From the NCBI GenBank assembly GCA_000004695.1, contig CM000150.2, positions 1,728,001 through 1,792,000 of the forward strand: a DNA stretch of 64,000 bases. Direction: 5' to 3'. The position numbers and the translations under genes are program-made. Below, piece after piece: positions 29,207-64,000 of the stretch. Below the pieces are notes generated by a model. That model was not told where the DNA came from and did no database searches. It worked only from the letters and a program-made list of their open reading frames with translations. Position 1 is the stretch's first letter. Each line of letters starts with the position of its first letter. This DNA comes from Dictyostelium discoideum. Taxonomy: Eukaryota.

Positions 29207-31400
<2,194 letters not shown>

Positions 31401-31439
31401 TGATGATGACGACATATTTGAATTGTTTTAAAAAAAATC

Positions 31440-31552
31440 TTTTTTTTTTTTTTTTTTTTTTTTTGAATGGAATAACGCAATTTTTAGTTGCTTCTTCTTG
31501 AGATATATCTCATTTTATTATTAAATATTTTACAGGTGCCTTTTAAGGTTGT

Positions 31553-31594
<42 letters not shown>

Positions 31595-31718: not shown

Positions 31719-31766
31719 TTAATAAAAAAACCTGATGGAGTAAATAAATTTTGATTTCATATCAAT

Positions 31767-32347: not shown

Positions 32348-32421
32348 CGAGACCATCAGGGGTCGAACCTGAGACCTACCGGTTCGTAGCCGGTCGTTAT
32401 ATCCAACTAAACTATAGTCCC
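32348..32421 (-). tRNA. tRNA-Arg (anticodon ACG), 74 nt
   Basis: The minus strand reads GGGACTATAGTTTAGTTGGATATAACGACCGGCTACGAACCGGTAGGTCTCAGGTTCGACCCCTGATGGTCTCG. The acceptor stem pairs with two G-U pairs, the anticodon stem ACCGG/CCGGT has loop CTACGAA, the T-loop is GGTTCGACC and the discriminator is G. Confidence 0.88.
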
Positions 32422-32453: not shown

Positions 32454-32533
32454 AACCTATTTCTTATCAAGGAGAAGCAAATAATAATTGCGTTATCCAA
32501 TTCAAAAAAAAAAAAAAAAAAACCTATTTCTTC
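32454..32533 (+). mobile_element. extremely 5'-truncated TRE5-type retroelement insertion (35-bp 3' unit plus A19) with a 12-13 bp target-site duplication, 46 bp upstream of tRNA-Arg
   Basis: 32467-32501 TCAAGGAGAAGCAAATAATAATTGCGTTATCCAATTC is the exact reverse complement of the 3' unit GAATTGGATAACGCAATTATTATTTGCTTCTCCTTGA seen at 45101 and 62368. It is followed by A19. Flanking direct repeats are AACCTATTTCTTA (32454-66) and AACCTATTTCTTC (32521-33). The element's truncated 5' end faces the tRNA 5' end (32421). Confidence 0.75.
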
Positions 32534-44715: not shown

Positions 44716-45029
44716 TTTTGGAAAAATTTATGGGTCCCATAAAAAATTAAAAAAAAACAAAAATATTTTAGTTTTTATATTTATTTTTTAAGTGAAACAA
44801 TTTCTTAAAATATGATAAAAACTATTAAAAAATAAGAAATTGAGGAATTTTATTAATTTATATTTCTTATTTCTTTTCTTCTTGTGTTAGTATTTCCGAT
44901 TCTTCAGGTTCATCGCATTGTGTGACATCAACTGGTTTTAAATGAATATTACCAATGATATTTCTTATTTCTTTTCTTCAGATTCATCTCTTTTCTTCAG
45001 AGTACCTGGTGAAAGTGGAAAAAACGCGA

Positions 45030-45069
45030 ACTTTTTTTGTATCGATAACGGATTTTGGAAAAAAAAACG

Positions 45070-45100
<31 letters not shown>

Positions 45101-45412
45101 GAATTGGATAACGCAATTATTATTTGCTTCTCCTTGAGATGCTAGATCTCATTTTATTTTTTTTTTTTTTTTACAGGGTCTTTTTGATTAAAACATCTTT
45201 TTTGTCCAAACTTTTTTCTAAATCTTTTTTTATTTTATCGTCTGGTTCGTGATTGATGTTTATGACGTATTTGAATTGTTTTTTTTTTAATTGAGTTTTA
45301 TCCACAATTTCGCTTATTTTTTGTAGGCATTTGTGTTGCTTAATATTTGTGGTGTTGTTTGTGATTTTCATTTTATTTTCTTTCTATCTTTTTTATTTTT
45401 CTGATTAACTTG

Positions 45413-45472
<60 letters not shown>

Positions 45473-46453
45473 TTATAGAAAGTACTGAGTGAATTATTGT
45501 ATTTTTTGAGATGTTTAGGAAGTTCTATTGCGGGTGTTGATGATGATTTGTGACACCCCTTGTCCTGTTTTATCAATTGGTGCGTGGTGTGTTATTTTGT
45601 TTTTATATTGTTGATTTATTGAGTAAATTTTATTTGTTTTTATATTTGTTTCAGTTAGAAGTGCTGCGTCCAGCTTGTTGTTGTCTAAAACGGTGTTTAT
45701 TATGCTGGCAGATTGGATGGTGTTGGATCCTTGGACGTTCCAAACACCTATTCTTATTGTGTTTTTCTTTATAGTTTTATTTGGGGTAGATTTTTATCTA
45801 CCTTTTGAAGTTTCTGGTTTATTTTGTCTTCTAACTGATCTTTACTTTGTTCATTGTGTTGTTGGTCTTGTGTGTTTGTGGGGTTTTTTGATTTATTGAT
45901 TTGTTTTAGAATTTCCTTGTTGAAGTTGTCTATATCTTCATCCATTTTTGTTTTTATGCTTTTTTGTCCATATTCACCCAATTTTGGTTTGACTGGTGTT
46001 TTGTTGGTCTTGTTTGTTTTGTCTTGTTGTTTCTTTTTTGGTGTGTTTAACAATTTACTTGGTGAATCGATAATTTTCGATGGTGTACCATAGGTTGGGC
46101 TGAAACTCATGATATGTTTTATTGGAGAGGAGAAGAACCATTGATTTGAAGGGATTGAAAGTGGGAATTCTATTTTTCTTATTGCATCAGTGTTTGGGCT
46201 GGTGAAGTCGAAGATATCATTTGCCTCTCTAAGTTTTTCTTCCGTTGTTAGTCCCTTTGTTTCGCCGTGTTGTTTTATTGGTGTATTGTATGGAGATGGT
46301 GGTTCGATAGGTTTTTCTGATTTTGTTTTAATTTCTTGATTGTTTATCGATTGTGTATTGATCTCATTCTCTATTCTTGTTAGTTCATCTACGTTTTCTA
46401 GTGATGCTTCTATTACCTTTTGAGCTGTATCATCTAGGGCCATAAATGTTTAT
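45030..46453 (-). mobile_element. TRE5-like non-autonomous non-LTR retroelement copy (M1): duplicated 3' terminal unit plus poly-A, short 3' ORF and ORF1-like gene; 5' part cut off at about 46453 by the plus-strand retrotransposon
   Basis: On plus it reads CGAAC-T7-GTATCGATAACGGATTTTGG (mini 3' fragment), then CGAAC-T28, then GAATTGGATAACGCAATTATTATTTGCTTCTCCTTGAGATGCTAGATCTCATTTT at 45101. This is a poly-A tail on the minus strand. The minus ORFs 45171..45371 and 45769..46443 are 97-100% identical to those of the copy at 62.4-63.9 kb. Homology to that copy ends at GGCCATAAATGTT (46442-46454). Confidence 0.65.
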
Positions 46454-46578
46454 GTGGAGAATTTATACATATAATAAATAAATCACTGTTATATCTTCAC
46501 CGCCACATTCATTCCTCTTAATTTTACCCTTTTTTTGCTCATTAAAGCAAGGGCTATCGTCCTATATACTTTTCAACA

Positions 46579-47787
46579 ATGGCTGATGATCACTCAACTG
46601 AATTACAGTTAAATCATACAGATAACAACACGACCAATACAAATAATACCTCCACAACCTCAACAACAAAAAATAAAAGTGCAAAAATCGACACACCTAA
46701 AAAACAAACCCCAACAAACCAACTCTCACTAAACAAAGGACTTGATAATCAATTAGATATCATTGCACCTCCATCAATCACAAGACCACTCTCTTTCTTA
46801 GAAAAAAACAATAACACCATCAACATTAAGTGTTACTTTAATCAACCACACATCCGTGAAGAATTAACCTCAAAAGATGACACAAGAATTCAACAAATTC
46901 ACAAAAACATTCACAAACTCTTCGAAGATATACTGTCGCCATCAGCATTCAAAATAATTGGTGCAACTGCCTTCGTAAATTGCAACGTTGATAAATTAAC
47001 TTCAATAATCAACCTTCAAAACCAACTTGCACTAAATATCGACAAACTCAACTATAGATTCGATATATCATCAAATGATTATGCAATCATTAAAACATTC
47101 ATTAAAACGTACTCACCCAAACATGCAAACGATGCAATTACAAACAACCTCACTAAATTCACCAGTTGTACATCAATTGAATCATTTACTGTCACATACT
47201 CATATGCTGTTGCGTTTAAAAGCTACATTATAACATATCATCTAATTGATCACACACACAACATTATTGATCAAAAGATCGAACAACCATCTGGTATCAC
47301 AAGATATATCAAAGCTGCAACACGTAGTGTCACTAAACACAAAATTCAACATGCAAAAAATGCAGATATGGCAACAACTATAAAAAATGCCATCACAAAC
47401 CCAAACATGAACAAAAACAATCAACCACCAAAAAACAACATTAACACCCCACCAATCAACGAAATTGCAAATTCCAATCGCAATAATAACTCACTTCAAA
47501 ATAGTGGTTCAAAAGCTATACTAAATGAATCACTTGATATTAACAATCAATCCCAAAACAATAATGAAATTTCACACAAAAGTGATTCTTCAAATAATAA
47601 TAACGGGAAAAACTCTTTATCAATGAGCAATCCAACCGATCCAACAATTGTACCACAAAAACCTCTACAATCTCAACCAAACAAACCAAGTGCACCAACT
47701 CCAAATACAATAAATACAAGAAGAAGCAGCAATGCCCTGACTACACAACCAGTCAATACTGGTGCTGCCAAACCTAGTAAGGTATGA
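46579..47787 (+). CDS. retrotransposon ORF1 protein (402 aa, Asn/Thr/Pro-rich, gag-like)
   Basis: ATG at 46579; overlaps ORF2 by 4 nt (ATGA at 47784-47787). Confidence 0.7.
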   Translation: MADDHSTELQLNHTDNNTTNTNNTSTTSTTKNKSAKIDTPKKQTPTNQLSLNKGLDNQLDIIAPPSITRPLSFLEKNNNTINIKCYFNQPHIREELTSKDDTRIQQIHKNIHKLFEDILSPSAFKIIGATAFVNCNVDKLTSIINLQNQLALNIDKLNYRFDISSNDYAIIKTFIKTYSPKHANDAITNNLTKFTSCTSIESFTVTYSYAVAFKSYIITYHLIDHTHNIIDQKIEQPSGITRYIKAATRSVTKHKIQHAKNADMATTIKNAITNPNMNKNNQPPKNNINTPPINEIANSNRNNNSLQNSGSKAILNESLDINNQSQNNNEISHKSDSSNNNNGKNSLSMSNPTDPTIVPQKPLQSQPNKPSAPTPNTINTRRSSNALTTQPVNTGAAKPSKV

Positions 47788-50700
47788 GCTCAAAAATCAA
47801 CTTTATAACATGGAATTGTAGAGGATTCACTGAAAACCCAAACAATCAACACAATTCCTACCAAAAAGCTGTTGACACACTACAACTACTTATATCAAAA
47901 CTTCCACCTCGTCCAACAATCTCAATACTCACTGAACTCAATTCATCACCATTACAACTTAAACATGATTTTCCCGATCACATCATCTCTGTCACCAAAC
48001 GAGGAAATGGTGTAATCATCATTAACCATAACCCAAACACACTCAAACTCAAACACATATCAACAATTGATGGTAGAGCTATTTTAGCAGACGTTATATT
48101 TCCAAATCAATTACCAATTGGTATTCTTGGAATTTACGCACCAGCATCAAATAATACCATCAAAAAGAATTCATATGCAACTTCACTACAAACACTTCTC
48201 CACAACCACTCAACAAACCCAATACCAAACCAATCCCAACATGTATCTATTATCGCAGGAGATTTCAACTGTATCCACAACGACAATTCACTATTAGATG
48301 ATATTATCCAATCCTACACATACCAACACCATCTAATTGATCAAGGTGAATTTAAAAACACTCCAACTCATACACATGGCAACAGATTAGATAGAATATA
48401 TACTCAATACAATAGAATAGACCCTGAAAATATATATACACAAGTCCACCAAATTCCATCTTCATTATCAGATCATAATCCAATATCAACAACAATTTCT
48501 TCACCTTTTCAAATAAATAAACATAAGAAAAGATGGATATTATCACCTGGTACTGCAAATGACCATGAAGCAATCAATATTATCAATCATTTAATAACTA
48601 ATCACAATAACACATCAATCAATCAATTTACAAACTGGTCAAAAGTAAAATCAAAAATTATAAAAACTCTAAAAAACTATCAATATAACAAAGACAAACA
48701 AACTCAACGTGCAAAACAAATACTATTAGAAAAAGCAGCAAAATTCAAACATCTTGAAGAACAATGCATCGCTGAATACAATATTATATGTAACAAAAAC
48801 AAACTACATCAAAACCACACAAACATATTAAAAAAACATATAAATGGAGAAATACCTAGCAAGTATCTATCAGCAATACTAAACAAAAGATCAAAAGATG
48901 CAAAAATTGAATCAATCCAATATGGTAACATCATTACATCCGACCCCGACCAAATTGAAAATGCGTTTGTTGAATTCTACACAAATCTATATAGCTTACA
49001 AATATGTTGTCCAATTACTCACCAGCTCATGCCAAACACATGGCCCATCATAAAAAATGAATATTGGAATGGTTTAGACTCACCATTTATACAAGATGAA
49101 GTTGAAGCTGCAATTAAAACCTGTAACCCCAACAAATCACCCGGTCCAGATGGCGTTACAAATGCATTCTACATTAATCATTTAAACCAAGTTAAACCAA
49201 TTCTCACTACATTATTCAACGATATACTAGAAAATCCTCACCACATCACAACAGAATTCACAGAAGGTCTTATACACACAATATACAAGAAAGGCAACCC
49301 CTTACTCATATCAAATCGTCGTCCCATTACACTTCTAAACACTGATTACAAGATCCTCTCAAAAGTAATCAATGCACGTCTTCTGAGAATACTTCCTTTC
49401 ATCATCAACAACAACCAAACTGGTTTCGTACCCCACAGATTCATCATAGACAACATCATCAACATCAATGAATTAATCAACTACCTCAAATCTAAAAACC
49501 TCCCTGGTATCATCACACTATTTGACTTCTTTAAAGCATTTGATTCTATCTCTCACGATAGCATTAAAAGAACATTAATTCATATTGGTATACCAATAAA
49601 ATTAATAAATTTAATCCACAAGCTATTATCTGACTCACAAGCAAAAATTTCAATTAATGGTAAAACGACCAGAAAATTCGATATTAAAAGAGGTGTAAAA
49701 CAAGGTGACCCAATCTCAGCCACTTTATTTGTAATTGTAATTGAAATATTAGCAAGAACAATAAATGCAGACAATTCAATAATTGGATTACCAATTTCAC
49801 CCAATCCACAAATTAAAATCAAATTTACCCAATTTGCAGACGACTCTACAACATACAACATCAACTACGAACAACAACAACAATCAATCAAACATTTCGA
49901 TAATTTCTGCGCTTCAACATCATCATCTTTAAATTTTGACAAAAGTGCAATAATAGAAATCAACCCCCACAAAATCACTGATAAACACATAATAAACAAC
50001 ATTCCACAATCAAAAAGAATTCCAATAACCAAAAAAGATCAATCAGAAAGAGTTCTTGGCTATTTCTTTAATCATAATGGTTTACATAGGAAATTACCAG
50101 AAACAATGAAAACACTGATTAAATCATTAGTGCTATGGAAAACTAGTGGCACAACATTAAAAACAAAAACAACCATCATAAACACCTACTCACTATCACC
50201 AATAACATATTTATCATACCTTGAAGAATTTACAAAAGATGAAGAAATTCAAATTAATAAATTAATCTCATGGTTTATGAATTCTCCCGCAAATTCTGAA
50301 TCACCAACTCTCGATACCAATTCCATTGAAAACAACACATCAACCATCCATTCACGTGCAAAAATACCTTTGATGTGTTATGATAGATCATTAAAACCAT
50401 TAAAAGAAGGAGGTTGGGGTATGTGGAATATCCAATTACGACAAGTTGCTCAAAAGATTTGGATATACAACAGATTTTTACAAATGCATAAATCTGCAAA
50501 CAATTCAATATACATGATAAGTTGGATGGATCAAATCATCAACAAATCAATCTCTTCTCCATACCTTATAAAAATAAAAAAAGAATGGGAAAACTATGCA
50601 ACTCAAATTGGACATCTAAAAGATAAAGTTCAAATCCTACAACCAATAATAACAAAAAACCAAACCTCTCAAACATTAAACACAAATAATATTTCACTAC

Positions 50701-51611
50701 CACCAACACTCAAAGAAATCTACTCGACAATACTAAACAATCACCTATGCAAATCAAAAGACTATATTGGCAAGAAATATTCAGATCTACTTCTTACTTC
50801 GCACCAACAATCAATACTTCTTTTATGGAAATACACATACGACCAACTTTTTGTCAAAATTCAAAAATTAAAAGATCCAAAAGGCCGAGATACAATGCAA
50901 AGATTCCATGCTAGATGTCTTCCGATTAATCATCTACACAACAAAGTTTGCCCCATTTGCAACAATGAAATGAATAATGATCCCTATGGTCATTTGTTTT
51001 TCAATTGTCAGCACACAATCAACTTCATTAACCACGACAAATTAAAATATTTTATATATAAAAATTGCAATGGAAACAAAAACTGGTCACTAACAAAAAA
51101 CCAAACAACAAAATTATACACACTCATCTATAAACCACAAACAAACAACAAAGCATTTAAACCAGATCCAACTATCAATATTAATTTTCATTTTGCAGAA
51201 AACGCACAATATAAAAAATACAGGTTCAACTGGAATTATATAAACACAAATCTTGATCTAGTCAGAACACATGCATATTGGAACATAATCTCATTAGTTA
51301 TTCACCAAATATGGATATGGTTATGCAAATCATTATTTGACATCAATATAACTCAATCAATTGATAATTGGAACAACCAAATAAACAACACAACACTAGA
51401 TTATGATATATTAAAATCAAAATGGCACAAGCTAATAAGATTGGAATATTCAAGAACTTTATCAAACTTTAACCAATACTCAATTAAAAACAACCTCACA
51501 AAAACTCAAAAAGAAACCCAATGGTCCGAAACCATCAAAAAATTTAAAAAAGAATGGAGCATAAACACTAATGAACCAATTCCAACAATTACACCACCAA
51601 TTAATTATTAA
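47784..51611 (+). CDS. retrotransposon ORF2 polyprotein (1275 aa): apurinic-endonuclease-like domain, reverse transcriptase, C-terminal CCHC-like zinc finger
   Basis: APE motifs are INFITWNCRGF...GDFNC. RT motifs are SPGPDGVTNAFY, RPITLLNTDYKILSKVINARL, QTGFVPHRFIIDNI, FDFFKAFDSISHD and FADDSTTY (the YXDD-type box). The Cys motif is CPICNNEMNNDPYGHLFFNCQHT. Confidence 0.85.
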   Translation: MSSKINFITWNCRGFTENPNNQHNSYQKAVDTLQLLISKLPPRPTISILTELNSSPLQLKHDFPDHIISVTKRGNGVIIINHNPNTLKLKHISTIDGRAILADVIFPNQLPIGILGIYAPASNNTIKKNSYATSLQTLLHNHSTNPIPNQSQHVSIIAGDFNCIHNDNSLLDDIIQSYTYQHHLIDQGEFKNTPTHTHGNRLDRIYTQYNRIDPENIYTQVHQIPSSLSDHNPISTTISSPFQINKHKKRWILSPGTANDHEAINIINHLITNHNNTSINQFTNWSKVKSKIIKTLKNYQYNKDKQTQRAKQILLEKAAKFKHLEEQCIAEYNIICNKNKLHQNHTNILKKHINGEIPSKYLSAILNKRSKDAKIESIQYGNIITSDPDQIENAFVEFYTNLYSLQICCPITHQLMPNTWPIIKNEYWNGLDSPFIQDEVEAAIKTCNPNKSPGPDGVTNAFYINHLNQVKPILTTLFNDILENPHHITTEFTEGLIHTIYKKGNPLLISNRRPITLLNTDYKILSKVINARLLRILPFIINNNQTGFVPHRFIIDNIININELINYLKSKNLPGIITLFDFFKAFDSISHDSIKRTLIHIGIPIKLINLIHKLLSDSQAKISINGKTTRKFDIKRGVKQGDPISATLFVIVIEILARTINADNSIIGLPISPNPQIKIKFTQFADDSTTYNINYEQQQQSIKHFDNFCASTSSSLNFDKSAIIEINPHKITDKHIINNIPQSKRIPITKKDQSERVLGYFFNHNGLHRKLPETMKTLIKSLVLWKTSGTTLKTKTTIINTYSLSPITYLSYLEEFTKDEEIQINKLISWFMNSPANSESPTLDTNSIENNTSTIHSRAKIPLMCYDRSLKPLKEGGWGMWNIQLRQVAQKIWIYNRFLQMHKSANNSIYMISWMDQIINKSISSPYLIKIKKEWENYATQIGHLKDKVQILQPIITKNQTSQTLNTNNISLPPTLKEIYSTILNNHLCKSKDYIGKKYSDLLLTSHQQSILLLWKYTYDQLFVKIQKLKDPKGRDTMQRFHARCLPINHLHNKVCPICNNEMNNDPYGHLFFNCQHTINFINHDKLKYFIYKNCNGNKNWSLTKNQTTKLYTLIYKPQTNNKAFKPDPTININFHFAENAQYKKYRFNWNYINTNLDLVRTHAYWNIISLVIHQIWIWLCKSLFDINITQSIDNWNNQINNTTLDYDILKSKWHKLIRLEYSRTLSNFNQYSIKNNLTKTQKETQWSETIKKFKKEWSINTNEPIPTITPPINY

Positions 51612-51835
51612 CTACCTAATCTAAAATAACATACTATTTTAAATTCACAAAAACTAAAAAACCTAAAATAAATAAATAAAAATAACATACTAATTGTATA
51701 CTACAATAGTTTATTTATATCAAAAAAAAAAAAAATTTTAGTATTACCAAAATACACCGCTTTTAGGTAAAAAAAAAAAAAAAGTATTACCAAAAGAATA
51801 AGTTAAAAAAAACCGAAAAAAACAAAGAAATAAAC

Positions 51836-54800
51836 GAGAATTTATACATATAATAAATAAATCACTGTTATATCTTCACCGCCACATTCATTCCTCTTAA
51901 TTTTACCCTATTTTTGCTCATTAAAGCAAGGGCTATCGTCCTATATACTTTTCAACAATGGCTGATGATCACTCAACTGAATTACAGTTATATCATACAG
52001 ATAACAACACAACCAATACAAATAATACCTCCACAACCTCAACAACAAAAAACAAAAGTGCAAAAATCGACACACCTAAAAAACAAACCCCAACAAACCA
52101 ACTCTCACTAAACAAAGGACTTGATAATCAATTAGATATCATTGCACCTCCATCAAATTCACAAAAACATTCACAAACTCTTCGAAGATATACTGTCGCC
52201 ATCAGCATTCAAAATAATTGGTGCAACTGCCTTCGTAAATTGCAACGTTGATAAATTAACTTCAATAATCAACCTTCAAAACCAACTTGCACTAAATATC
52301 GACAAACTCAACTATAGATTCGATATATCATCAAATGATTATGCAATCATTAAAACATTCATTAAAACGTACTCACCCAAACATGCAAACGATGCAATTA
52401 TAAACAACCTCACTAAATTCACCAGTTGTACATCAATTGAATCATTTACTGTCACATACTCATATGCTGTTGCGTTTAAAAGCTACATTATAACATATCA
52501 TCTAATTGATCACACACACAACATTGTTGATCAAAAGATCGAACAACCATCTGGTATCACAAGATATATCAAAGCTGCAACACGTAGTGTCACTAAACAC
52601 AAAATTCAACATGCAAAAAATGCAGATATGGCAACAACTATAAAAAATGCCATCACAAACCCAAACATGAACAAAAACAATCAACCACAAAAAAACAACA
52701 TTAACACCCCACCAATCAACGAAATTGCAAATTCCAATCGCAATAATAACCCACCTCAAAATATTGGTTCAAAAGCTACACAAAATGAATCACTTGATAT
52801 TAACAATCAATCCCAAAACAATAATGAAATTTCACACAAAAGTGATTCTTCAAATAATAATAACGGGAAAAACTCATTATCAATGAGCAATCCAACCGAT
52901 CCAACAATTGTACCACAAAAACCTCTACAATCTCAACCAAACAAACCAAGTGCACCAACTCCAAATCCAATAAATACAAGAAGAAGCAGCAATGCCCTGA
53001 CTACACAACCAGTCAATACTGGTGCTGCCAAACCTAGTAAGGTATGAGCTCAAAAATCAACTTTATAACATGGAATTGTAGAGGATTCACTGAAAACCCA
53101 AACAATCAACACAATTCCTACCAAAAAGCTGTTGACACACTACAACTACTTATATCAAAACTTCCACCTCGTCCAACAATCTCAATACTCACTGAACTCA
53201 ATTCATCACCATTACAACTTAAACATGATTTTCCCGATCACATCATCTCTGTCACCAAACGAGGAAATGGTGTAATCATCATTAACCATAACCCAAACAC
53301 ACTCAAACTCAAACACATATCAACAATTGATGGTAGAGCTATTTTAGCAGACGTTATATTTCCAAATCAATTACCAATTGGTATTCTTGGAATTTACGCA
53401 CCAGCATCAAATAATACCATCAAAAAGAATTCATATGCAACTTCACTACAAACACTTCTCCACAACCACTCAACAAACCCAATACCAAACCAATCCCAAC
53501 ATGTATCTATTATCGCAGGAGATTTCAACTGTATCCACAACGACAATTCACTATTAGATGATATTATCCAATCCTACACATACCAACACCATCTAATTGA
53601 TCAAGGTGAATTTAAAAACACTCCAACTCATACACATGGCAACAGATTAGATAGAATATACTCAATACAATAGAATAGACCCTGAAAATATATATACACA
53701 AGTCCACCAAATTCCATCTTCATTATCAGATCATAATCCAATATCAACAACAATTTCTTCACCTTTTCAAATAAATAAACATAAGAAAAGATGGATATTA
53801 TCACCTGGTACTGCAAATGACCATGAAGCAATCAATATTATCAATCATTTAATTACTAATCACAATAACACATCAATCAATCAATTTACAAACTGGTCAA
53901 AAGTAAATCAAAAATTATTAAAACTCTAAAAAACTATCAATATAACAAAGACAAACAAACTCAACGTGCAAAACAAATACTATTAAAAAAAGCAGCAAAA
54001 TTCAAACATCTTGAAGAACAATGCATCGCTGAATACAATATTATATGTAACAAAAACAAATTACATCAAATCCACACAAACATATTAAAAAAACATATAA
54101 ATGGAGAAATACCTAGCAAGTATCTATCAGCAATACTAAACAAAAGATCAAAAGATGCAAAAATTGAATCAATCCAATATGGTAACATCATTACATCCGA
54201 CCCCGACCAAATTGAAAATGCGTTTGTTGAATTCTACACAAATCTATAAAGCTTACAAATATGTTGTCCAATTACTCACCAGCTCATGCTAAACACATGG
54301 CCCATCATAAAAAATGAATATTGGAATGGTTTAGACTCACCATTTATACAAGATGAAGCTGCAATTAAAACCTGTAACCCCAACAAATCACCCGGTCCAG
54401 ATGGCGTTACAAATGCATTCTACATTAATCATTTAAACCAAGTTAAACCAATTCTCACTACATTATTCAACGATATACTAGAAAATCCTCACCACATCAC
54501 AACAGAATTCACCGAAGGTCTTATACACACAATATACAAGAAAGGCAACCCCTTACTCATATCAAATCGTCGTCCCATTACACTTCTAAACACTGATTAC
54601 AAGATCCTCTCAAAAGTAATCAATGCACGTCTTCTGAGAATACTTCCTTTCATCATCAACAACAACCAAACTGGTTTCGTACCCCACAGATTCATCATAG
54701 ACAACATCATCAACATCAATGAATTAATCAACTACCTCAAATCTAAAAACCTCCCTGGTATCATCACACTATTTGACTTCTTCAAAGCATTTGATTCTAT

Positions 54801-56122
54801 CTCTCACGATAGTATTAAAAGAACATTAATTCATATTGGTATACCAATAAAATTAATAAATTTAATCCACAAGCTATTATCTGACCCACAAGCAAAAATT
54901 TCAATTAATGGTAAAACGACCAGAAAATTCGATATTAAAAGAGGTGTAAAACAAGGTGACCCAATCTCAGCCACTTTATTTGTAATTGTAATTGAAATAT
55001 TAGCAAGAACAATAAATGCAGACAATACAATAATTGGATTACCAATTTCACCCAATCCACAAATTAAAATCAAAAGATGAAGAAATTCAAATTAATAAAT
55101 TAATCTCATGGTTTATGAATTCTCCCGCAAATTCTGAATCACCAACTCTCAATACCAATTCCTTTGAAAACAACACATCAACCATCCATTCACGTGCAAA
55201 AATACCTTTGATTTGTTATGATAGATCATTAAAACCATTAAAAGAAGGTGGTTGGGGTATGTGGAATATACAATTACGACAAGTTGCTCAAAAGATTTGG
55301 ATATACAACAGATTTTTACAAATGCATAAATCTGCAAACAATTCAATATACATGATAAGTTGGATGGATCAAATCATCAACAAATCAATCTCTTCTCCAT
55401 ACCTTATAAAAATCAAAAAAGAATGGGAAAACTATGCAACTCAAATTGGACATCTAAAAGATAAAGTTCAAACCCTACAACCAATATTAATAAAAAACCA
55501 AACCTCTCAAACATTAACCACAAATAATATTTCACTACCACCAACACTCAAAGAAATCTACTCGACAATACTCAACAATCATCAATGTAAATCAAAAGAC
55601 TATATTGGCAAGAAATATTCAGATCTACTTCTTACTTCGCACCAACAATCAATACAACTATTATGGAAATACACATACGACCAACTATTTGTCAAAATTC
55701 AAAAGCTAAAAGATCCAAAAGGCCGTGATACAATGCAAAGATTCCATGCTAGATGTCTTCCGATTAATCATCTACACAACAAAGTTTGCCCCATTTGCAA
55801 CAATGAAATGAATAATGATCCCTATGGTCATTTGTTTTTCAATTGTCAGCACACAATCAACTTCATAAACCACGACAAATTAAAAAATTTTATATATAAA
55901 AATTGCAATGGAAACATCAAAAAATTTAAAAAAGAATGGAGCATAAACACAAATGAACCAATTCCAACAATTACACCACCAATTAATTATTAATTACCTA
56001 ATCTAAAATAACATACCATTTTAAATTCACAAAAACTAAAAAACCTAAAATAAATAAATAAAAATAACATACTAATTGTATACTACAATAGTTTATTTAT
56101 ATCAAAAAAAAAAAAAAAAAAA
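51836..56122 (+). pseudogene. second tandem copy (P2) of the same retrotransposon, degenerate: internal deletions, frameshifts and a nonsense mutation
   Basis: Relative to P1 it has a 114-bp deletion in ORF1 (52150), a 2-bp TA deletion (about 53660), 1-bp deletions (about 53905), TAT to TAA at 54247, and roughly 460-bp deletions at 55076 and 55915 that remove the FADD box and part of the C-terminus. The ORF fragments are 51958..53047, 53044..53673, 54286..55080 and 55034..55993. The tail is A19 at 56104-56122. Confidence 0.8.
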
Positions 56123-56154
56123 CTATATTTTTAGATTTGTATGAATTTTGTTTA

Positions 56155-57000
56155 TTATTTAAGTAAAGTTTTAAGATTTTTTGGGAGTAGATTATTCGTT
56201 AATTGTAAATTTGGACAATCCAAAGTTAGAGTTGTGAGAGAATTTGGGAATATTTCATCTGGTAAATTATGTTCCTGTGTCTGGATATCTAATGATGTTA
56301 AATTTTTAAAACCAGAAAAAGGATTTATCAGTGTTGAATCCAAGGGAATATAAATTGAAAGTGTTTGAATTGATTTTGGTAATTGTTGATAATCAGAGCA
56401 ACTATTCAATGTTAAACTTGTAATATTTGGTAGGAAGATATCCTTTAAGTTATTGGAAGTTTCATGGACATCAAAAACTAAAGTTTTAATTGATATTGGT
56501 AATGAGTTTGATTCAATTTTAGAACCTCTAGAACCAAGGAATTCCAATGATGTAACATTATGTGGAATCATTCCTCTTTTAATTTTTTGATCGAAAGAAG
56601 AATCAAATGTTAATGAAGTTGTGCCACCAGGTATTGATTTTGAATTTGAATCTCTAACTGTTGAATTTGGAATTAATTTAATTGAATTGTTTTTTGAATT
56701 AAAATGGTAGTTGAGGTCTGTAATTGATTTTGGTATTGATCCATTCAAAATGGTACCTTTATTGATTCAATAGTTCTTGGTAACCATGGTATACCATTTG
56801 AATCACTTAATGCTTGATTAAATCTACTACCAAAATTAATGGTTTTAAGAGTATTACCAATGATGTTACAAGTTAATGCTTGGTCAAACTTTGAAAATGA
56901 AATGGATAACAATGTATCAGGTATCCAATGATCTCCTAATATAAAATTTGAGCAATCAATATATTTTTTCTACACCCGATGGAATTGGATATTTATCTTT
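56155..57000 (-). pseudogene. FNIP-repeat protein gene fragment (copy A)
   Basis: The minus ORF 56155..56748 has repeated 22-23 aa FNIP units (SIPGGTTSLTFDSSFDQKIKRGMIPHNVTSLEF; LPKSIQTLSI; IPNSLTTLTL). Upstream the frame is broken by stops. Confidence 0.5.
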
Positions 57001-57639
57001 TGTTAAAACTATCTCACTCTTTAAGTTGATTTTACTTAAATAATTTCTATATTTATATGTCAATAATTCATTTAATGATTTGGGCAATACAATATTTATC
57101 ATAATTATTATTATATAATCTAAGATAAAATAAAATTGTTTTCCTTAAAATCATATTTCCCCAAACTTTTTTAAATAATATATAATTATAATCAATATAT
57201 TGATTTAATTCTTTATTAATTTGGTCCAATGGTAATGATTTTAAAATTAATTGATTATTATTATTAATGATTTGATGATTTAAATTATTTTTAATAATTA
57301 TTTGAATTGAACAATCGAATGCTATTCTTTTATTTCTATTGATAGTTATATTATTATTATTATCTTATTACTATTATTATTATTATCTGCTATTGAATGA
57401 TTATATATATTGTATTGAATAGAATCATTTTTATTAGTGAAAGAATTTTTTATAAATACACCCCAAAATATTAATATGTAAATGATTATTTATTATTTGA
57501 AATTGTTGATAATTTAATCCTTTTAAATCATTTAAATAATTTTGTTCTTTTTCTTCTTCTTGTCTATATATAAAAATAATTAATAATAGTAAAGATGAGT
57601 GTGTTAACGAATGAATGAATGAGTGAGTGAATGAATGAA

Positions 57640-57712
<73 letters not shown>

Positions 57713-58056
57713 TAATAAAAATAGGGTATAATGAATATTAATAAATAATTAAACTATTATTATAACATACATTGATATTTTTCTTTTTTTTTGAATGTTT
57801 CCGATATTGTTTTTATCATTGATATTATTACAATATTCTTGTAATTGATTAAATGTTATATTTAAATTATTAATTGATAATATTAATAAACAATATAAAA
57901 ATTCTTCACTTTCATTTTTATTATTATTATTATTATTGTTATAATTATTAATTAAATAATAATAAATGATATTATCCATTTTTAAAAAAAAAAAAAATAA
58001 AAAAATAAATAAAAAACACCAAAAGTTTTGTCTGAAAAAAAAAAAAAAAAAAAAAA

Positions 58057-58416
58057 TTAAACATTAAATGTTTTAAAATCAGAGAAACCACCCACTGTTA
58101 AATTTGTAATGCTTGGTGGCAATATATCCTTTAGGTTATTGATAGATTTATGTTTAAGAAGAACCAAAGTTTTAATTGAGATTGGTAATGAATTTGCTTC
58201 AATAAGACAACCTTCATAATTTTTGAACTCTAATGATGTAACATTATGTGGAATCATTCCTTTTTTAATTGTTTGGTTGAAATGATAACCAAATGTTAAT
58301 GAAGTTGTACCACCAGGTATTGATTTTGAATTTGACATGAAGAAAAAGAACAAACCTTTTTAAATGATTTAAAAGGATTAAATTATCAACAATTTCAAAT
58401 AATAATAATAATAATA

Positions 58417-58447
<31 letters not shown>

Positions 58448-58760
58448 TCAATTAATTTTAAAATCGTTACCATTTGATCAAATTAATAAAATTAAATTAA
58501 ATAAAGAATTAAATCAATATATTGATTATAATTATATATTATTTAAAAAAGTTTGGGGAAATATAGTTATTAGGAAAATAATTTTATTTCATCTTAGATT
58601 ATATAATATTAATAATTGTACTATTGAATTTACATTAAATGGTTTATCAACATATAAATATAGAAATTATTTAAGTAAAATCATATTAGAATGAGAAGAT
58701 AGTGAGATAGTTTTAACAAAAGATAAATATCCAATTTCATCAAGTGTATAGTTAATTAAT
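58057..58760. pseudogene. FNIP-repeat gene fragments in head-to-head arrangement (FNIP repeats on minus 58057..58353; N-terminal-like region on plus 58440..58760)
   Basis: The minus ORF reads ...SIPGGTTSLTFGYHFNQTIKKGMIPHNVTSLEF... The plus strand at 58500-58760 encodes KLNKELNQYIDYNYILFKKVWGNIVIRKIILFHLRLYN...SEIVLTKDKYPI. This is an inverted copy of the minus-strand sequence at 57050-57300. Confidence 0.45.
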
Positions 58761-59068
58761 TAAATAATAATAAATGATATTATCCATTTTTCTGAAAAAT
58801 TTTAAAAAAAAAATAAAATAAAAAATAAAAAATAAAAAAACAAAAAACGTTATTTTGACAAAATTTTTGGGAAAATAAAAAAATTGTGAAGATTTATAGT
58901 ATTTTTTTTTTTTTTTTCAACAATGATTTAATTTTATATTTATGGATTTAATAAAGATAAATATAACACTAAAAAATACACAAAATGACATAATGATGAT
59001 GATTTAAATCAAACATTGAGTATTACATGTTTGATAAAGAAATCTAAACTAATAGAGTTTATACAATT

Positions 59069-60330
59069 TTAACTATCGTTTGGAATATAAAGAGATTCGA
59101 ATGAAGATGGCCAAATTAAATCTGGTAATTTTTTAAAAACAAGTTGAGAGCTAGAAAAATAAAATGATTTTAAATTTGGTGGTAACGCATCTCTATCGAT
59201 AGTTAAATTAAAATCAATACCTAAATGTAATGAAGTGAGTGATTGTGGTAATACATCTTTTTGAATTGGTTGAGAGAATGATGGTAATTTTAATATTTCT
59301 ATTGATGATGGTAGATTACCAACATTTATAGATTGGCTAAAATATGATAACTCTAAAACCTTTAGATTTCTTGGGAGGAGGTTATTCGTTAATTGTAAAT
59401 ATTGGCAATCCAAAATTAGAGTTGTGAGAGAATTTGGTAATATTGAATCTGGTAAATTATCTTCAATTGTTGAGCAACCTAATGATGTTAAATGTTTAAA
59501 ACCAGAAAAAGGATTTATCAATGTTGAATCTAAGTAAGTACCTATTTTAAGTTTTTTAATTGATTTTGGTAATTGTTGATAATCAGAGCAACCATTCACA
59601 GTTAAATTTGTAATGCTTTGTGGTAATATATCCTTAGAGTTTTAAGTGTACCAAGAACTAAAGTTTTAATTGATATTGGTAATGAGTTTGCTTCAATATC
59701 ATAACCATTGGAACCAGAGAATTCCAATGATGTAACATTATGTGGAATCATTCCTTTTTTAATTGTTTGATTGAAATTATAATCAAATTCCAACGAAGTT
59801 GTACCACCAGGTATTGATTTTGAATTTTCATCTCTAACTGTTGAATTTGGAATTAATTTAATTGAATTGTTTGAATGGAATTGATAGTTGAGGTCTTTAA
59901 TTGAGTTTGGTATTGATCCATTCACAATGATACCTTTATAATTTTCATCAAGAGTTAAAGATGTAAGTGATGGTGGTAATTCATCTCTATTAATTGATTG
60001 TTGAAATGATTCTCCAAAACGTATTGATTCAAGAGTTCTTGGTAACCATGGTATACCATTTGAATCACTTAATGATTGATTAAATCTATCACCAAAATCA
60101 ATGGTTTTAAGAGTATTACCAATGATGTTACGAGTTAATTCTTGATCAAACTTTGAAAATGAAATGGATAGCAATGTATCAGGTATCCAATGATATCCTA
60201 ATTTCATATTTGAACAATTAATTTGTAAATCTTCTACACTCGATTGAATTGGATATTTATCTTTTGTTAAAACTATTTCACTATCTTCACATTCTAATCT
60301 AATTCCACTTAAATAATTTCTATATTTATA
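59069..60330 (-). pseudogene. FNIP-repeat protein gene fragment (copy B), frame-disrupted duplicate of copy A
   Basis: The ORFs 59602..60207 and 59069..59599 are collinear with copy A but separated by an in-frame stop or indel (…ISIKTLVLGTLKTLRIYYHKALQI* versus copy A …ISIKTLVFDVHETSNNLKDIF…). Upstream sequence is shared with copy A (SEIVLTKDKYPIQSSVEDL). Confidence 0.5.
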
Positions 60331-61776
60331 TGTTGATAAATCATTTGATGTTATTTGATTAATATAATATTATTATCTGTTATTGAATGATTATATATAT
60401 ATTATCTTGTATTGAACAGAATTATTAGTGAAAGAATTTTTTAAAATTTGTTAATGATTATTTATTATTTGAAATTGTTGATCATTTAATCATTTTAAAT
60501 CATATAAATAACTTTGTTCTTTTTCTTCTTGTCTATTTATAAAAATATTTAATATAAGGAGGATGATGAGTGTGTTAATGAATGAATGAATAATAAATAA
60601 TTAGACAATCGTTATAAAATGAAAAATAAAAATTTTTTTTTTTTAAAACATGTCTGATTTATGGCAAATATTTTTTTTTTTTTTTTTTTAAGAATTTACC
60701 ATTCATTTTTACAACAATTACAAAAATTGGAATTTTAAAAAAATGAATTGGTATAAAAAAGTTTTTAAAGGGAAAAAAAAAAAATTGGTTTGGAATAAAA
60801 AAAAAAAAAAAATTAAAAATAAATTAAATGAGGTAAAATTATAATCAAATTAATAAACCTGTTCATTATTTTTTTAGTTTTCATTAAAAAAATTTTAATA
60901 CAAATAAAAATAAAATAAATAATGAATTGGTATAAAAAAAAAATTTATGAGGAAAAAATATATTCATAATGTGGAAACTATAAAAAAATAATGTTTAAAA
61001 AAAAGGGGGGTAGGGGTGAAAAAAAGAAAAAAAAAAGGGGAAAACTTAAATATTATTATTTTATACCACCTACATTTATTATGAAAATTCCACAATAAAA
61101 ATTTTAACTCAATTAATAATAATGTTTTAAATTTAATATGTATCATTCATCCATATGATATTTCTGAACCAATCAATTCCCTTCCATGGACTTCTGATGA
61201 TCCTCATGTTATAGCCATCAACCTTCCAGATTGTTATGAATATAGTATACAAGTTTGAATGATAATTTTTTGATCATTTTAAACATTACCAAAAAACATA
61301 AACAAATATTTTTAAAATAATTAAACCAAATTATTATTATTATTTTTTTTTTTTATTTTTAATTTTTTTTTTTTTATCATAAATTTTTTTTATACCAGTT
61401 CAATAAAAAAAAAAAAAAATTGATTTACTTTGATTTGATTTAATTGAATAGGTTTATTTTTTATTTTTAAAGTTTTATTAATTTCTTATTTTAATTTATT
61501 TTATAATTGAATTGCAAAAATAAAATAATTTTGAAAAAATTAAAAAAAAAAAATTAAAAAAAAACAGAATAGATTCATTTTTTTTATATTTAATATCTTT
61601 TTGAGTGCTCTATTTATCTAAAACAAATTCACATATAAAAATGATTGTTGTGAATGAAAAAAAAAAAAAAAACCCCCTTCTTGTTTTCTGAGAAACTAAA
61701 ACTGAATAAAAAAGATGAAGATAAACTTTGCTTAAAACTAAGTTTTAAAAATTAAAAAAAAAGCCATTTATTTTAC

Positions 61777-61844
<68 letters not shown>

Positions 61845-62257
61845 GTGAAAGAATTTTTTAAGATTTGTAAATGATTATTTATTATTTGAAATTGTTGATA
61901 ATTTAATCTCTTTAAATCATTTGAATAGCTTTTTTGTTTTTCTTCTTCTTGTCTATATATAAAAATAATTAAAAATAATAATGATGATGAGTGTGTTAAT
62001 GAATGAATGAGTGAATGAATAAATAATAAAAAGAATAAATAATTAAACTATTATTATAAAATACAATGATATTTTTCTTTTTTTTGAATGTTTCGGGTAT
62101 TGTTTTTATCATTGATATTATTACAATATTCTTGTTAACTGGTTGGCTCCCAGGTTTTTTTTTTTTTGTCTTTTTATATGAAAAATGAAATAATCAAAAA
62201 AAGAGATTGTTGTTTTTTGTTTTTTTCGATCTCAAATTAAGTAATAACCTTTTTTTT

Positions 62258-62322
62258 GAATAGAATAACGCAATTTTTAGTTGCTTCTTCTTGAGATATC
62301 TCATTTTATTTTGAATAATTAA
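62258..62322 (-). mobile_element. solo TRE5-type 3' terminal unit with short poly-A (mini-fragment) adjacent to the next element
   Basis: T8 is followed by GAATAGAATAACGCAATTTTTAGTTGCTTCTTCTTGAGATATCTCATTTTATTTTG. This is the same unit as at 31465. Confidence 0.5.
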
Positions 62323-62331: not shown

Positions 62332-62366
<35 letters not shown>

Positions 62367-62677
62367 AATTGGATAACGCAATTATTATTTGCTTCTCCTT
62401 GAGATGCTAGATCTCATTTTATTTTTTTTTTTTTTTTACAGGGTCTTTTTGATTAAAACATCTTTTTTGTCCAAACTTTTTTCTAAATCTTTTTTTATTT
62501 TATCGTCTGGTTCGTGATTGATGTTTATGACGTATTTGAATTGTTTTTTTTTTAATTGAGTTTTATCCACAATTTCGCTTATTTTTTGTAGGCATTTGTG
62601 TTGCTTAATATTTGTGGTGTTGTTTGTGATTTTCAATTTATTTTCTTTCTATCTTTTTTATTTTTCTGATTAACTTG

Positions 62678-62736
<59 letters not shown>

Positions 62737-64000
62737 TTATAGAAAGTACTGAGTGAATTATTGTATTTTTTGAGATGTTTAGGAAGTTCTATTGCGGGTG
62801 TTGATGATGATTTGTGACACCCCTTGTCCTGTTTTATCAATTGGTGCGTGGTGTGTTATTTTGTTTTTATATTGTTGATTTATTGAGTAAATTTTATTTG
62901 TTTTTATATTTGTTTCAGTTAGAAGTGCTGCGTCCAGCTTGTTGTTGTCTAAAACAAAAAAATTATGCGGCAAAAGGATGGTGTTGGATCCTTGGACGTT
63001 CCAAACACCTATTCTTGTTGTGTTTTTCTTTATAGTTTTATTTGGGGTAGATTTTTATCTACCTTTTGAAGTTTCTGGTTTATTTTGTCTTCTAACTGAT
63101 CTTTACTTGTTCGTTGTGTTGTTGGTCTGGGGTTTGTGGGTTTTTTGATTTATTGATTTGTTTTAGAATTCCTTGTTGAAGTTGTCTATTCTTTCATCCA
63201 TTTTGTTTTTTATGCTTTTTTGTCCATATTCACCCAATTTTGGTTTGACTGGTGTTTGTTGGTCTTGTTTGTTTTGTCTTGTTGTTCTTTTTTGGTGTGT
63301 TTAACAATTTACTTGGTGAATCGATAATTTTCGATGGTGTACCATAGGTTGGGCTGAAACTCATGATATGTTTTATTGGAGAGGAGAAGAACCATTGATT
63401 TGAAGGGATTGAAAGTGGGAATTCTATTTTTCTTATTGCATCAGTGTTTGGGCTGGTGAAGTCGAAGATATCATTTGCCTCTCTAAGTTTTTCTTCCGTT
63501 GTTAGTCCCTTTGTTTCGCCGTGTTGTTTTATTGGTGTATTGTATGGAGATGGTGGTTCGATAGGTTTTTCTGATTTTGTTTTAATTTCTTGATTGTTTA
63601 TCGATTGTGTATTGATCTCATTCTCTATTCTTGTTAGTTCATCTACGTTTTCTAGTGATGCTTCTATTACCTTTTGAGCTGTATCATCTAGGGCCATAAA
63701 TGTTTTATCATTAGATGAGGATGTGATTGGTGGGATAATGATTGTTCTTTTTCCTTGTTTTGGTATTTGTTCTGATGTAGATTGTGGTTGTTGTTCATCT
63801 GATTGTTTTTTATTTTTGTTTTCTTCTTGATTTTCTGGTAATGAGGTTTGATCTCTCCATCCTTTGTTGGAGTGTCCAATTAATGTTAGATTGTCTAGTT
63901 CAATGATAGTGTCAAATTCTTCTACGACTCTTTTCACTGTTTTGATAATTAGAGTTTCGCCTTTAATTTCTGATTTAATTAGTTTACATCCTTCATTTTC
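62332..64000 (-). mobile_element. TRE5-like non-autonomous non-LTR retroelement copy (M2) with A36 tail; extends beyond the right edge of the window
   Basis: T36 at 62332-62367 is followed by GAATTGGATAACGCAATTATTATTTGCTTCTCCTTGAGATGCTAGATCTCATTTT. The minus ORFs 62436..62636 (identical to 45171..45371) and 63230..63937 (ORF1-like) continue in frame upstream past 64000 (…KLIKSEIKGETLIIKTVKRVVEEFDTII…). Confidence 0.65.

Follow-up and report, generated by a model that had tools for sequence, protein, structure and literature searches.

Two tRNA-targeted TRE clusters, a probably deleted tRNA-Tyr gene and a probable misjoin inside a TRE3 element on Dictyostelium discoideum AX4 chromosome 1

We propose, with a probability of about 0.7, that the retrotransposon array in a 64-kb window of Dictyostelium discoideum AX4 chromosome 1 (the whole stretch of DNA analyzed, within which all positions below are numbered) combines two tRNA-targeted TRE clusters, one of which has lost a tRNA-Tyr gene by deletion, and that the AX4 reference joins them inside a TRE3 element. 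The missing tRNA gene and the pristine-looking "master" copy in the array are probably both consequences of the deleted tRNA gene and of the joining of distant loci in AX4. The original prediction had described a non-autonomous TRE5-like element (M1) with a sister copy (M2), a full-length APE-RT element (P1) inserted into M1, and a decayed tandem twin of P1 (P2); its coordinates and anatomy of the four elements were mostly correct, and the account of how they came together requires revision.

Assemblies and loci compared

For comparison, we used the near-isogenic long-read assembly GCA_054883475.1 (relative to the window, no substitutions across 5490 bp of right flank and 3 across 7.8 kb of left flank), whose source, hereafter the sister strain, is presumably AX2-214. 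Two of its TRE3 copies correspond to parts of P1, namely P_A (locus L006) and P_B (locus L001), which lie ~602 kb apart on one contig. The corresponding loci of two wild strains that are ~12% diverged (L012 and L013) were also compared. SRP RNA and the proteins of DDB_G0268248, DDB_G0268250, DDB_G0268252, DDB_G0268606, and DDB_G0268608 gave the matches that assign the window to AX4 chromosome 1. The AX4 gene order outside the window was deduced from the order of XP and UniProt accessions, not from sequence.

Coding capacity and identity of P1

As represented in AX4, P1 occupies positions 46457-51735 on the plus strand (5279 bp), starting with GAGAATTTATAC and ending in poly(A) (51722-51735). 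The predicted 5.28-kb element with two intact reading frames was confirmed: ORF1 (46579-47787, plus strand, frame 1) encodes 402 aa and ORF2 (47784-51611, plus strand, frame 0, or -1 relative to ORF1) encodes 1275 aa, the two overlapping by ATGA at 47784-47787. On the plus strand, P1 contains an APE domain (47805-48476; Pfam Exo_endo_phos, E=1e-12), the FADD motif of the RT (49833-49844; ORF2 matches RVT_1 with E=3e-31), and a CxxC zinc-finger region from ~50949 (CPICNN...H..FNC at aa 1056), in agreement with P1 and P2 being APE-RT non-LTR elements in tandem. The claim of full length did not hold. In other family copies, the element extends 5' of GAGAATTT by at least 29-43 bp, with GAAAAAACGAAAAAAAAACCGAAAAAACAAAGAAATAAAC directly preceding that motif, and therefore P1, whose 5' part is P_A, is 5'-truncated by ~30-43 bp.

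P1 and P2 are TRE3 elements, either TRE3-A or TRE3-B. The consensus lengths of these subfamilies are 5229 bp (TRE3-A) and 5279 bp (TRE3-B) (PMC5911963), and the reconstructed full length of the P family without its tail, ~5.29-5.31 kb (5294-5308 bp), is nearer to TRE3-B. The P-family cluster includes DDB_G0291688, whose neighboring ID DDB_G0291686 is labeled "TRE3-B ORF2" in dictyBase, as well as the GenBank "Pol" protein AAD43057, which bears no subfamily name. Length and the dictyBase label on the neighboring ID favor TRE3-B over TRE3-A. Papers and supplements searched for GenBank/UniProt accessions and DDB_G identifiers gave no match bearing on the TRE3-A/B choice, and a protein search with the APE N-terminus, aimed at DDB_G0291686, returned two unnamed fragments only.

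Copies of the P family stand downstream of tRNA genes and on the same strand. The motif GAGAATTT was located 99 bp downstream of tRNA-Lys (L001 and L014), 93 bp downstream of an intron-containing tRNA gene left untyped by ARAGORN (L002), 42 bp downstream of tRNA-Thr (L003), and 68 bp downstream of tRNA-Leu (L005), and a 5'-truncated copy follows tRNA-Pro (L007). Such orientation rules, as well as TRE-TRE tandems, have already been described (PMC3159450, PMC5391098, PMC5911963).

P1 combines two TRE3 copies of the sister assembly

Compared with the sister assembly, P1 is chimeric, switching cleanly and only once along its length from one TRE3 copy to another. All 24 diagnostic SNPs in its 5' part (46457-49337, plus strand), together with the left flank, match P_A and not P_B; after an interval without informative sites (49338-49819, plus strand), all 17 in its 3' part (49820-51735, plus strand) match P_B and not P_A. 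The surroundings are partitioned in the same way, M1 and the left flank going with the P_A locus and the P_B-type side sharing the spacer, P2, and the right flank with the P_B locus. What had been put forward as a candidate master copy is, in AX4, a composite in which a young, 5'-truncated copy is combined with an older one, and the identical fused ORF1-ORF2 product is encoded at at least four other sister-strain loci.

DDB_G0268918 has an exact match in AX4. DDB_G0269036, a "partial" TRE3 ORF2 model of AX4, carries the adjacent XP number and begins at a position corresponding to nt 49269, ~70-550 bp from the switch point. We considered this model as unique proof of the 3' half of P_A and rejected it, as the family consensus matches equally well; the 3' half of P_A shows 1 nt difference in 2453 against four other copies. 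AX4 DDB_G0268944 is 100% identical to a sister-strain TRE3 copy lying 177 kb into the ~0.6-Mb block. A simple 0.6-Mb deletion in AX4 is ruled out by the retention of both DDB_G0268918 and DDB_G0268944. We propose that the AX4 reference fuses two clusters within TRE3 sequence at 49338-49819, yielding a "P1" that is half P_A and half P_B, and that the join, which would leave out the tRNA-Lys gene and ~0.6 Mb of genes, arose as a repeat-induced misjoin or mis-scaffold in the 2005 Sanger assembly.

A reference misassembly is the most likely explanation of the AX4 join, more so than a real rearrangement. That AX4 underwent a transposon-mediated rearrangement relative to AX2, with P1 as a true recombinant element, we regard as unlikely, even though homologous recombination also predicts one clean switch inside the 480-bp identical stretch. 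Further large structural changes in AX4 have already been reported (PMC12745789), and the risk of recombination between non-allelic TRE copies is recognized (PMC9012585). However, with a simple deletion excluded and the block kept in AX4, the block might have to be excised by recombination between P_A and P_B and reintegrated at another TRE3 copy, and the AX4 order demands at least two exchanges. In addition, the partial TRE3 ORF2 beside DDB_G0268918 resembles a contig break inside P_A, and neither pair of P1 flanks forms a target-site duplication. We give marginally less credence still to a TRE3-mediated relocation of ~0.6 Mb of chromosome 1 that distinguishes AX4 from AX2, with P1 as the recombinant joint; if true, recombination between dispersed retrotransposons would have set the two most widely used laboratory strains apart by a large structural change not reported before.

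The P1-P2 tandem and the tRNA-Lys gene

The arrangement of P1 and P2 as a same-orientation tandem was predicted correctly, but with a spacer of 100 bp; the true spacer is ~60 bp, because the 5' end of the element lies upstream of GAGAATTT. This spacer (51736-51796, plus strand) holds, in interrupted form, the right copy of the ~18-bp target-site duplication of P_B, TTTTAGTATTACCAAAAG, the left copy of which adjoins tRNA-Lys at the P_B locus. Within it lies a 31-nt mini-insertion (51753-51783, plus strand), composed of TACACCGCTTTTAGGT plus A15, with a 12-bp duplication of its own, GTATTACCAAAA (51741-51752 and 51784-51795); the same mini-insert was found downstream of other tRNA genes, again with duplications.

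P2 (51797-56122, plus strand) is an older TRE3 with a genuine 5' end, in which AAAAAAAACCGAAAAAAACAAAGAAATAAAC directly precedes GAGAATTT, and from 51836 on it shares 98.79% identity with P1 (4282 aligned columns). Pfam domains are matched in P2 as fragments. It is decayed as predicted, with six indels, all deletions (119, 2, 1, 6, 413, and 456 bp), rather than at least seven lesions; of the two deletions said to remove FADD, only that of 413 bp, corresponding to P1 49820-50232, takes it. The tandem is not an assembly artefact, because the P-P2 arrangement, the spacer, and the deletions in P2 all recur in the independent long-read assembly GCA_054883475.1.

The whole TRE3 array is followed on its right by CTATATTTTTAG (56123-56134, plus strand), the right copy of its target-site duplication. 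The left copy is absent from the window and lies 26-37 nt downstream of the sister-strain tRNA-Lys(UUU), the gene that P_B follows at a distance of 99-100 bp. In the proposed history of this second cluster, tRNA-Lys(UUU) would have been hit repeatedly by TRE3-type elements via target-primed reverse transcription, first by P2, then by P_B, and then by a 16-nt stub, producing a usual TRE-TRE tandem.

M1 and M2 as TRE5-A.2 elements

By their modular layout, M1 and M2 are assigned to TRE5-A.2. This element is defined by AB-ORF1-BC modules with a duplicated B-module of ~290 bp, a duplication absent from TRE5-B and TRE5-C; it has no ORF2, and its C-module is reduced to the 3'-terminal ~87 bp followed by oligo(A) (PMC3159450). 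M1 (45073-46451, minus strand, delimited by homology to M2) contains a 28-nt poly(A) (45073-45100), 81 bp left over from the C-module (45101-45181, separating the poly(A) from the B-module), the 3' B-module (45182-45468), a 300-bp ORF2 remnant between the ORF1 stop and the B-module, and the 3' half of ORF1 (45769-46443, minus strand), whose 224-aa protein matches AX4 DDB_G0268606 exactly. The ORF1-B-C layout without an ORF2 agrees with the predicted non-autonomous TRE5 element, and no RT or APE Pfam domains were found in the M1 and M2 ORFs. M2 (DDB_G0268470; 62338-64000, minus strand) continues past the window end.

M1 shares 97.9% identity with M2 (62338-63705) and 98.5% with a full-length AB-ORF1-BC element at the P_B locus, and falls short of the 2.38-kb element by ~1038 bp. 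The full-length relative carries a 307-bp direct repeat (88% identity) covering the start of ORF1 as well as the 3' UTR, and its 5' B-module is matched at 90% by M1 45182-45468 and by the equivalent segment of M2. A complete TRE5-A.2 ORF1 has 444 aa, consistent with the reported 51-kDa ORF1 protein. [quoted passage not shown] In the sister strain, M2 has a full-length counterpart positioned 45 bp upstream of tRNA-Thr(AGU). In the window, a distance of 45 bp separates tRNA-Arg from a 38-nt copy of the TRE5-A.2 3' end that carries a target-site duplication. The target DNA left of M1 (45020-45072, minus strand, read directly) includes what is probably an older, tiny TRE5-like 3' remnant (45032-45056, minus-strand reading AAAATCCGTTATCGATAC plus A7), which is bordered by the repeat GTTCG(C)GTTTTT (45020-45031 and 45059-45072).

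The M1/P1 junction and a probable loss of tRNA-Tyr

As predicted, M1 loses homology to M2 at the P1 boundary. The homology ends at 46451-46453, 3-5 nt before P1, and M2 goes on beyond. The head-to-head M1/P junction contains a filler of 3-5 nt, ATGTG (46452-46456), which we propose to be a deletion scar. The junction is genuine, as AX4 and two contigs of GCA_054883475.1 carry it in identical form. One redundant 14.7-kb contig of the latter stops exactly at the M1/P junction, indicating that the assembly graph is tangled there too.

In both wild strains, only an intron-containing tRNA-Tyr gene, and no transposon, lies between the DDB_G0268918 ortholog and the SET gene (DDB_G0268252 in AX4). The motif GTTCGTTTTTTTTTCC, which in the window adjoins the M1 poly(A), is found in the wild strains 34 nt upstream of this tRNA-Tyr gene. 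D. firmibasis (L009) was too rearranged or diverged to serve as an outgroup, with neither a homolog of the 888-aa gene nor a tRNA gene at the site. A 13-bp duplication, AACTTTTTTTGTA, around the whole M1 plus P_A composite was considered and rejected, as the wild-strain copy of the motif is oppositely oriented.

Given its presence in wild strains ~12% diverged, the tRNA-Tyr gene was presumably once part of the NC4 lineage. In the proposed history of the first cluster, M1 would have inserted ~50 bp upstream of tRNA-Tyr(GUA) and P_A downstream of it, both in canonical orientation with their 5' ends toward the tRNA gene. A deletion of ~1.3 kb would then have taken the 5' part of M1 (~1 kb), tRNA-Tyr, and the first 30-43 bp of P_A, with the head-to-head ATGTG junction as its product. 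The identities of the elements, the chimera, the target-site duplications, and the gene order of the other strains are direct observations, and we infer the order of these events and the cause of the deletion; the deletion of the gene and of the ends of M1 and the TRE3 is proposed because wild strains keep the gene and the elements are canonically oriented.

The 5' truncation of M1 may instead date from its own insertion. It is also possible, though we consider it the less probable course, that tRNA-Tyr and the 5' part of M1 were lost during the integration of P_A itself and not later, either by target-primed reverse transcription with a large target-site deletion or by the two strands priming on different RNAs. 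In this case, the 5' truncation of P_A, its attachment via 3-5 filler nucleotides, and its lack of a target-site duplication would all be accounted for, these three features being, as in L1 biology, hallmarks of abnormal 5' junctions in non-LTR insertions; a later unrelated deletion, however, yields an identical structure. Far more improbable, to the point of being nearly discounted, is the original prediction that P1 inserted into and truncated M1, drawn by element-borne B-box-like TFIIIC sites without a tRNA gene. The end of M1-M2 homology within 3-5 nt of the first base of P1 fits such nesting, and so does the absence of any tRNA gene detected by ARAGORN or Rfam at 32422-64000 of the window. 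However, P1 has no target-site duplication (left flank ending in TTTATGTG; right flank TTTTAGTATT in AX4 and GATTCGAAAA in AX2), P itself is 5'-truncated, and no M homology was found to the right of P in either the P_A locus or the window, so that the remainder of M1 is absent beyond P in AX4 and AX2 alike. Although the sister-strain P_B begins with the B-box-like GTTCAAATC, GTTCRANNC occurs at chance level (11 observed vs 8.9 expected), with no occurrence near the junctions and with those in P all 4.2 kb from its 5' end, and tRNA-Lys and the presumably lost tRNA-Tyr account for the clusters. The head-to-head layout is, moreover, exactly the one known for a TRE5 and a TRE3 at the same tRNA gene (PMC3159450, PMC5911963), and the gene in question persists in the wild strains. 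The accompanying statement that no tRNA gene occurs within 10 kb holds inside the window but not beyond it, as a tRNA-Thr gene lies at window-equivalent ~65.35 kb, just past the window end and ~9.2 kb right of P2.

Implications and comparison with known systems

The biology at this locus, namely tRNA-gene targeting, tandem formation, and decay, is already known TRE behavior, and its value is chiefly curational. The AX4 reference near DDB_G0268606/DDB_G0268608 probably misorders ~0.6 Mb of chromosome 1; it displays a hybrid TRE3, and the spliced model DDB_G0268608 spans two elements. As it stands, the locus would mislead studies of retrotransposon activity, synteny comparisons, and counts of "TREs without a tRNA gene". 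Under the deletion reading, it would illustrate clearly how a tRNA gene can be deleted between a flanking TRE5 and TRE3.

P1 shares with TRE3-A and TRE3-B (Tdd-3/RED) the two ORFs, the -1-frame ORF2, the APE-RT-zinc-finger order, the oligo(A), and the length; unlike their consensus, P1 is 5'-truncated and chimeric, and P2 is deleted at six places. M1 and M2 resemble TRE5-A.2, a non-autonomous TRE5-A/DRE derivative, in ORF1, the duplicated B-module, the ~80-bp C-module remainder, and the oligo(A), whereas M1 differs from a typical TRE5-A.2 in lacking its first ~1038 bp and its tRNA gene. As in described TRE-TRE tandems (PMC5391098), P_B and P2 stand head to tail beside a single tRNA-Lys gene, with overlapping target-site duplications and with the ORFs of each undisturbed by the other; unlike those tandems, the AX4 array has no tRNA gene, owing to the join inside the proximal copy. 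Finally, P1 resembles both Sanger-era repeat-induced chimeric joins and products of non-allelic homologous recombination between LINEs, which show the same single SNP switch within a near-identical repeat and the same unique flanks from two distant loci, and both causes fit P1.

Gene content and the P1 and P2 elements

The window is AT-rich, and its encoded proteins are exact or near-exact counterparts of D. discoideum AX4 chromosome 1 proteins. Protein matches placed DDB_G0268248, DDB_G0268250 and the SET gene DDB_G0268252 in its left part and identified the 224-aa ORF of the minus-strand TRE5 element M1 as DDB_G0268606. A Dictyostelium SRP RNA gene (30352-30634, minus strand; Rfam, 308 bits) was detected, and ARAGORN and Rfam found tRNA-Lys(CUU) at 31766 and tRNA-Arg(ACG) at 32348-32421 (minus strand), with no other tRNA gene in the window. 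The right flank (56155-60400) carries tandem FNIP-repeat gene segments with 81-88% mutual identity.

By sequence reading, the plus-strand TRE3 element P1 starts at 46457 (GAGAATTTATAC), and the poly(A) tails lie at 51722-51735 in P1 and at 56103-56122 in P2, its tandem copy. P1 encodes a 402-aa ORF1 and, in the -1 frame, a 1275-aa ORF2 with Exo_endo_phos and RVT_1. Filtered self-comparison aligned P1 and P2 in four blocks; in a global alignment they were 98.79% identical, with P2 deletions of 119, 2, 1, 6, 413 and 456 bp. Filtered self-comparison also matched M1 (45073-46451) to a second such element, M2 (62338-63705), at 97.9%, and the homology stops at 46451-46453 by sequence reading. The original prediction was thus sound in outline (end of M1/M2 homology, P1 start and ORFs); its lesion list, in which two deletions removed the FADD box, needs correction, as FADD (49833-49844) was lost through the 413-bp deletion only. 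The spliced model DDB_G0268608 tracks P1 ORF2 residue by residue, a window-specific variant included, before crossing into P2. Together with the other protein matches, this identifies the window as the AX4 reference.

The P ORF2 falls into one cluster with numerous AX4 and sister-strain proteins plus a GenBank 'Pol' entry. Comparison with other copies put the true 5′ end of the family at least 29-43 bp further upstream than GAGAATTT, so P1 is slightly 5′-truncated. Length (5279 bp vs 5229 bp) favours TRE3-B over TRE3-A, as does the label that dictyBase gives to a neighbouring gene ID. At one compared locus (L004, 2680-2800), the DNA upstream of a TRE3 copy contains two apparent tRNA halves set apart from each other, with the B-box half (GGTCATCAGTTCGAGCCTGAT) preceding the A-box half (TAGCTCAGCGGTAGAGCG); no tRNA gene was called there by ARAGORN.

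A probable loss of a tRNA-Tyr gene at the M1/P junction

In two wild D. discoideum-clade assemblies, the ortholog of DDB_G0268918, an 888-aa protein gene, adjoins the SET gene DDB_G0268252, across an interval of 0.6-0.9 kb that contains exactly one intron-containing tRNA-Tyr(GUA) gene (Rfam 57.8 bits) and no transposon. The sequence GTTCGTTTTTTTTTCC, which adjoins the M1 poly(A), recurs 34 nt upstream of this tRNA gene, the place expected for the distal copy of a TRE5 target duplication. At the M1/P junction that tRNA gene and its flanks are missing, M1 lacks approximately 1038 bp, and P_A, the sister-strain TRE3 copy at this site, lacks 30-43 bp; ATGTG stands in their place. The junction is real, being identical in AX4 and two sister-strain contigs. 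P1 had been described as nested in M1, a reading we reject because we found neither a target duplication around P nor M sequence on its far side; the sequence instead indicates a deletion scar. A redundant 14.7-kb sister-strain contig (JBTAPE010000002.1), a copy of the end of contig JBTAPE010000039.1, ends precisely at the M1/P boundary (window 46456), which shows that the long-read assembly graph is likewise unresolved at this repeat.

P1 as a hybrid and the AX4 join

Outside repeats, the long-read assembly GCA_054883475.1 of the sister strain is nearly identical to the window: the right side shows 0 substitutions over 5490 bp and the left side 3 over 7.8 kb, and almost all remaining differences are homopolymer-type, single-base-run indels. 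On its contig JBTAPE010000039.1, the window left flank and M1 are followed by P_A and then DDB_G0268918. About 602 kb from P_A, the same strand carries a TRE5 fragment, tRNA-Lys(UUU), a second TRE3 copy (P_B), the same spacer as in the window, and P2, after which the window right flank continues to M2. In a three-way alignment, P1 matched P_A at 24/24 informative sites (46542-49337) and then P_B at 17/17 (49820-51612); it is therefore a single-switch hybrid of the two. Three A-to-T differences within 5 nt (50818, 50819 and 50822; Q1012L in ORF2) are AX4-only, missing from P_A, P_B, P2 and all other copies examined, and may represent a local consensus error.

A plain AX4 deletion of the skipped block is excluded because AX4 retains its content: DDB_G0268918 is present, and DDB_G0268944 is 100% identical to the TRE3 copy located 177 kb inside the block, other copies differing at 5-7 residues. 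DDB_G0269036, a 'partial' TRE3 ORF2 whose XP number directly precedes that of DDB_G0268918, begins at the position corresponding to nt 49269 (70-550 bp ahead of the switch interval), and UniProt and XP numbering place both genes just after M2. The AX4 order would follow simply from a contig break plus misjoin within a repeat of 5.3 kb and >99% identity, and on these sequence comparisons we put the probability of an assembly artefact at roughly 0.7. A real AX4 rearrangement, which would require several exchanges to reach the same order, seems unlikely.

Repeated insertion at tRNA-Lys(UUU)

The sequence CTATATTTTTAG comes directly after the P2 poly(A) (56123-56134). In the sister strain it also occurs 26-37 nt 3′ of tRNA-Lys(UUU), and P_B is flanked on both sides by TTTTAGTATTACCAAAAG. 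The P1-P2 spacer holds a 31-nt stub (TACACCGCTTTTAGGT plus A15; 51753-51783) with a 12-bp duplication. Taken together, the P2, P_B and stub duplications show that this tRNA gene was the target of at least three insertions. Stubs of this kind, 16-17 nt of (A)ACACCGCTTTTAGGT plus poly(A), also occur downstream of other tRNA genes (L002 1516-1551; L004 8174-8200) and probably represent the extreme 3′ end of a different TRE3 family. The L002 stub has the external B box GGTTCAATTCTTTA as its duplicated target; at L004, where the stub follows the poly(A) of a P copy, no duplication was noted.

Element-borne B boxes had been proposed as the attractor; the window holds 11 GTTCRANNC motifs vs 8.9 expected, none of them near an element junction. 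P_B starts with GTTCAAATCCCAG right after the target duplication (L001 9827-9839, just upstream of P_B), and this makes up the B-box-like GGTTCAAATCC. One possibility is that it is the tRNA-Lys gene's own external B box; the duplication pattern favours import from the source locus.

TRE5 sequences and comparison with known systems

A 38-nt TRE5-A 3′ end with A20 (32467-32532) is bracketed by the two copies of a 10-bp duplication, CCTATTTCTT, at a distance of 45 bp upstream of tRNA-Arg(ACG). It shares its 3′ end with the M elements and is an extremely 5′-truncated insertion at the canonical position. Variant C-module fragments (GAATRGAATAACGCAATTTTTAGTTGCTTCTTCTTGAGATAT...; ~83-85% identical to the M1 C-module), one upstream of tRNA-Lys(CUU) (31358-31590) and the other abutting the M2 poly(A) (62250-62312), may be TRE5-C-type 3′ ends. 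The A-module is present in about four tandem ~200-bp copies at the sister-strain M2 5′ end (L014 19340-20190) and in a two-copy version (97 bp at 95% identity) in the L001 TRE5-A.2.

M and P are known element families with known behaviour, and the apparent anomalies reflect a lost tRNA gene and a probable reference-assembly join, of low interest other than for reference curation. The full-length M relative at L001 (2.38 kb, 444-aa ORF1, without ORF2) carries a ~300-bp direct repeat shared by the ORF1 start region and the 3′ UTR, its 3′ copy being present in M1 and M2. This layout is the AB-ORF1-BC arrangement defining TRE5-A.2, whose duplicated B-module TRE5-B and TRE5-C lack (PMC3159450). Other P-family copies are found 42-99 bp 3′ of tRNA genes and in the orientation of those genes, matching the TRE3 rule (PMC5911963). 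The orientations of M1 and P_A fit the canonical TRE5/TRE3 pair around one shared tRNA gene (PMC3159450, PMC5911963), and the P_B-P2 array matches described TRE-TRE tandems (PMC5391098).
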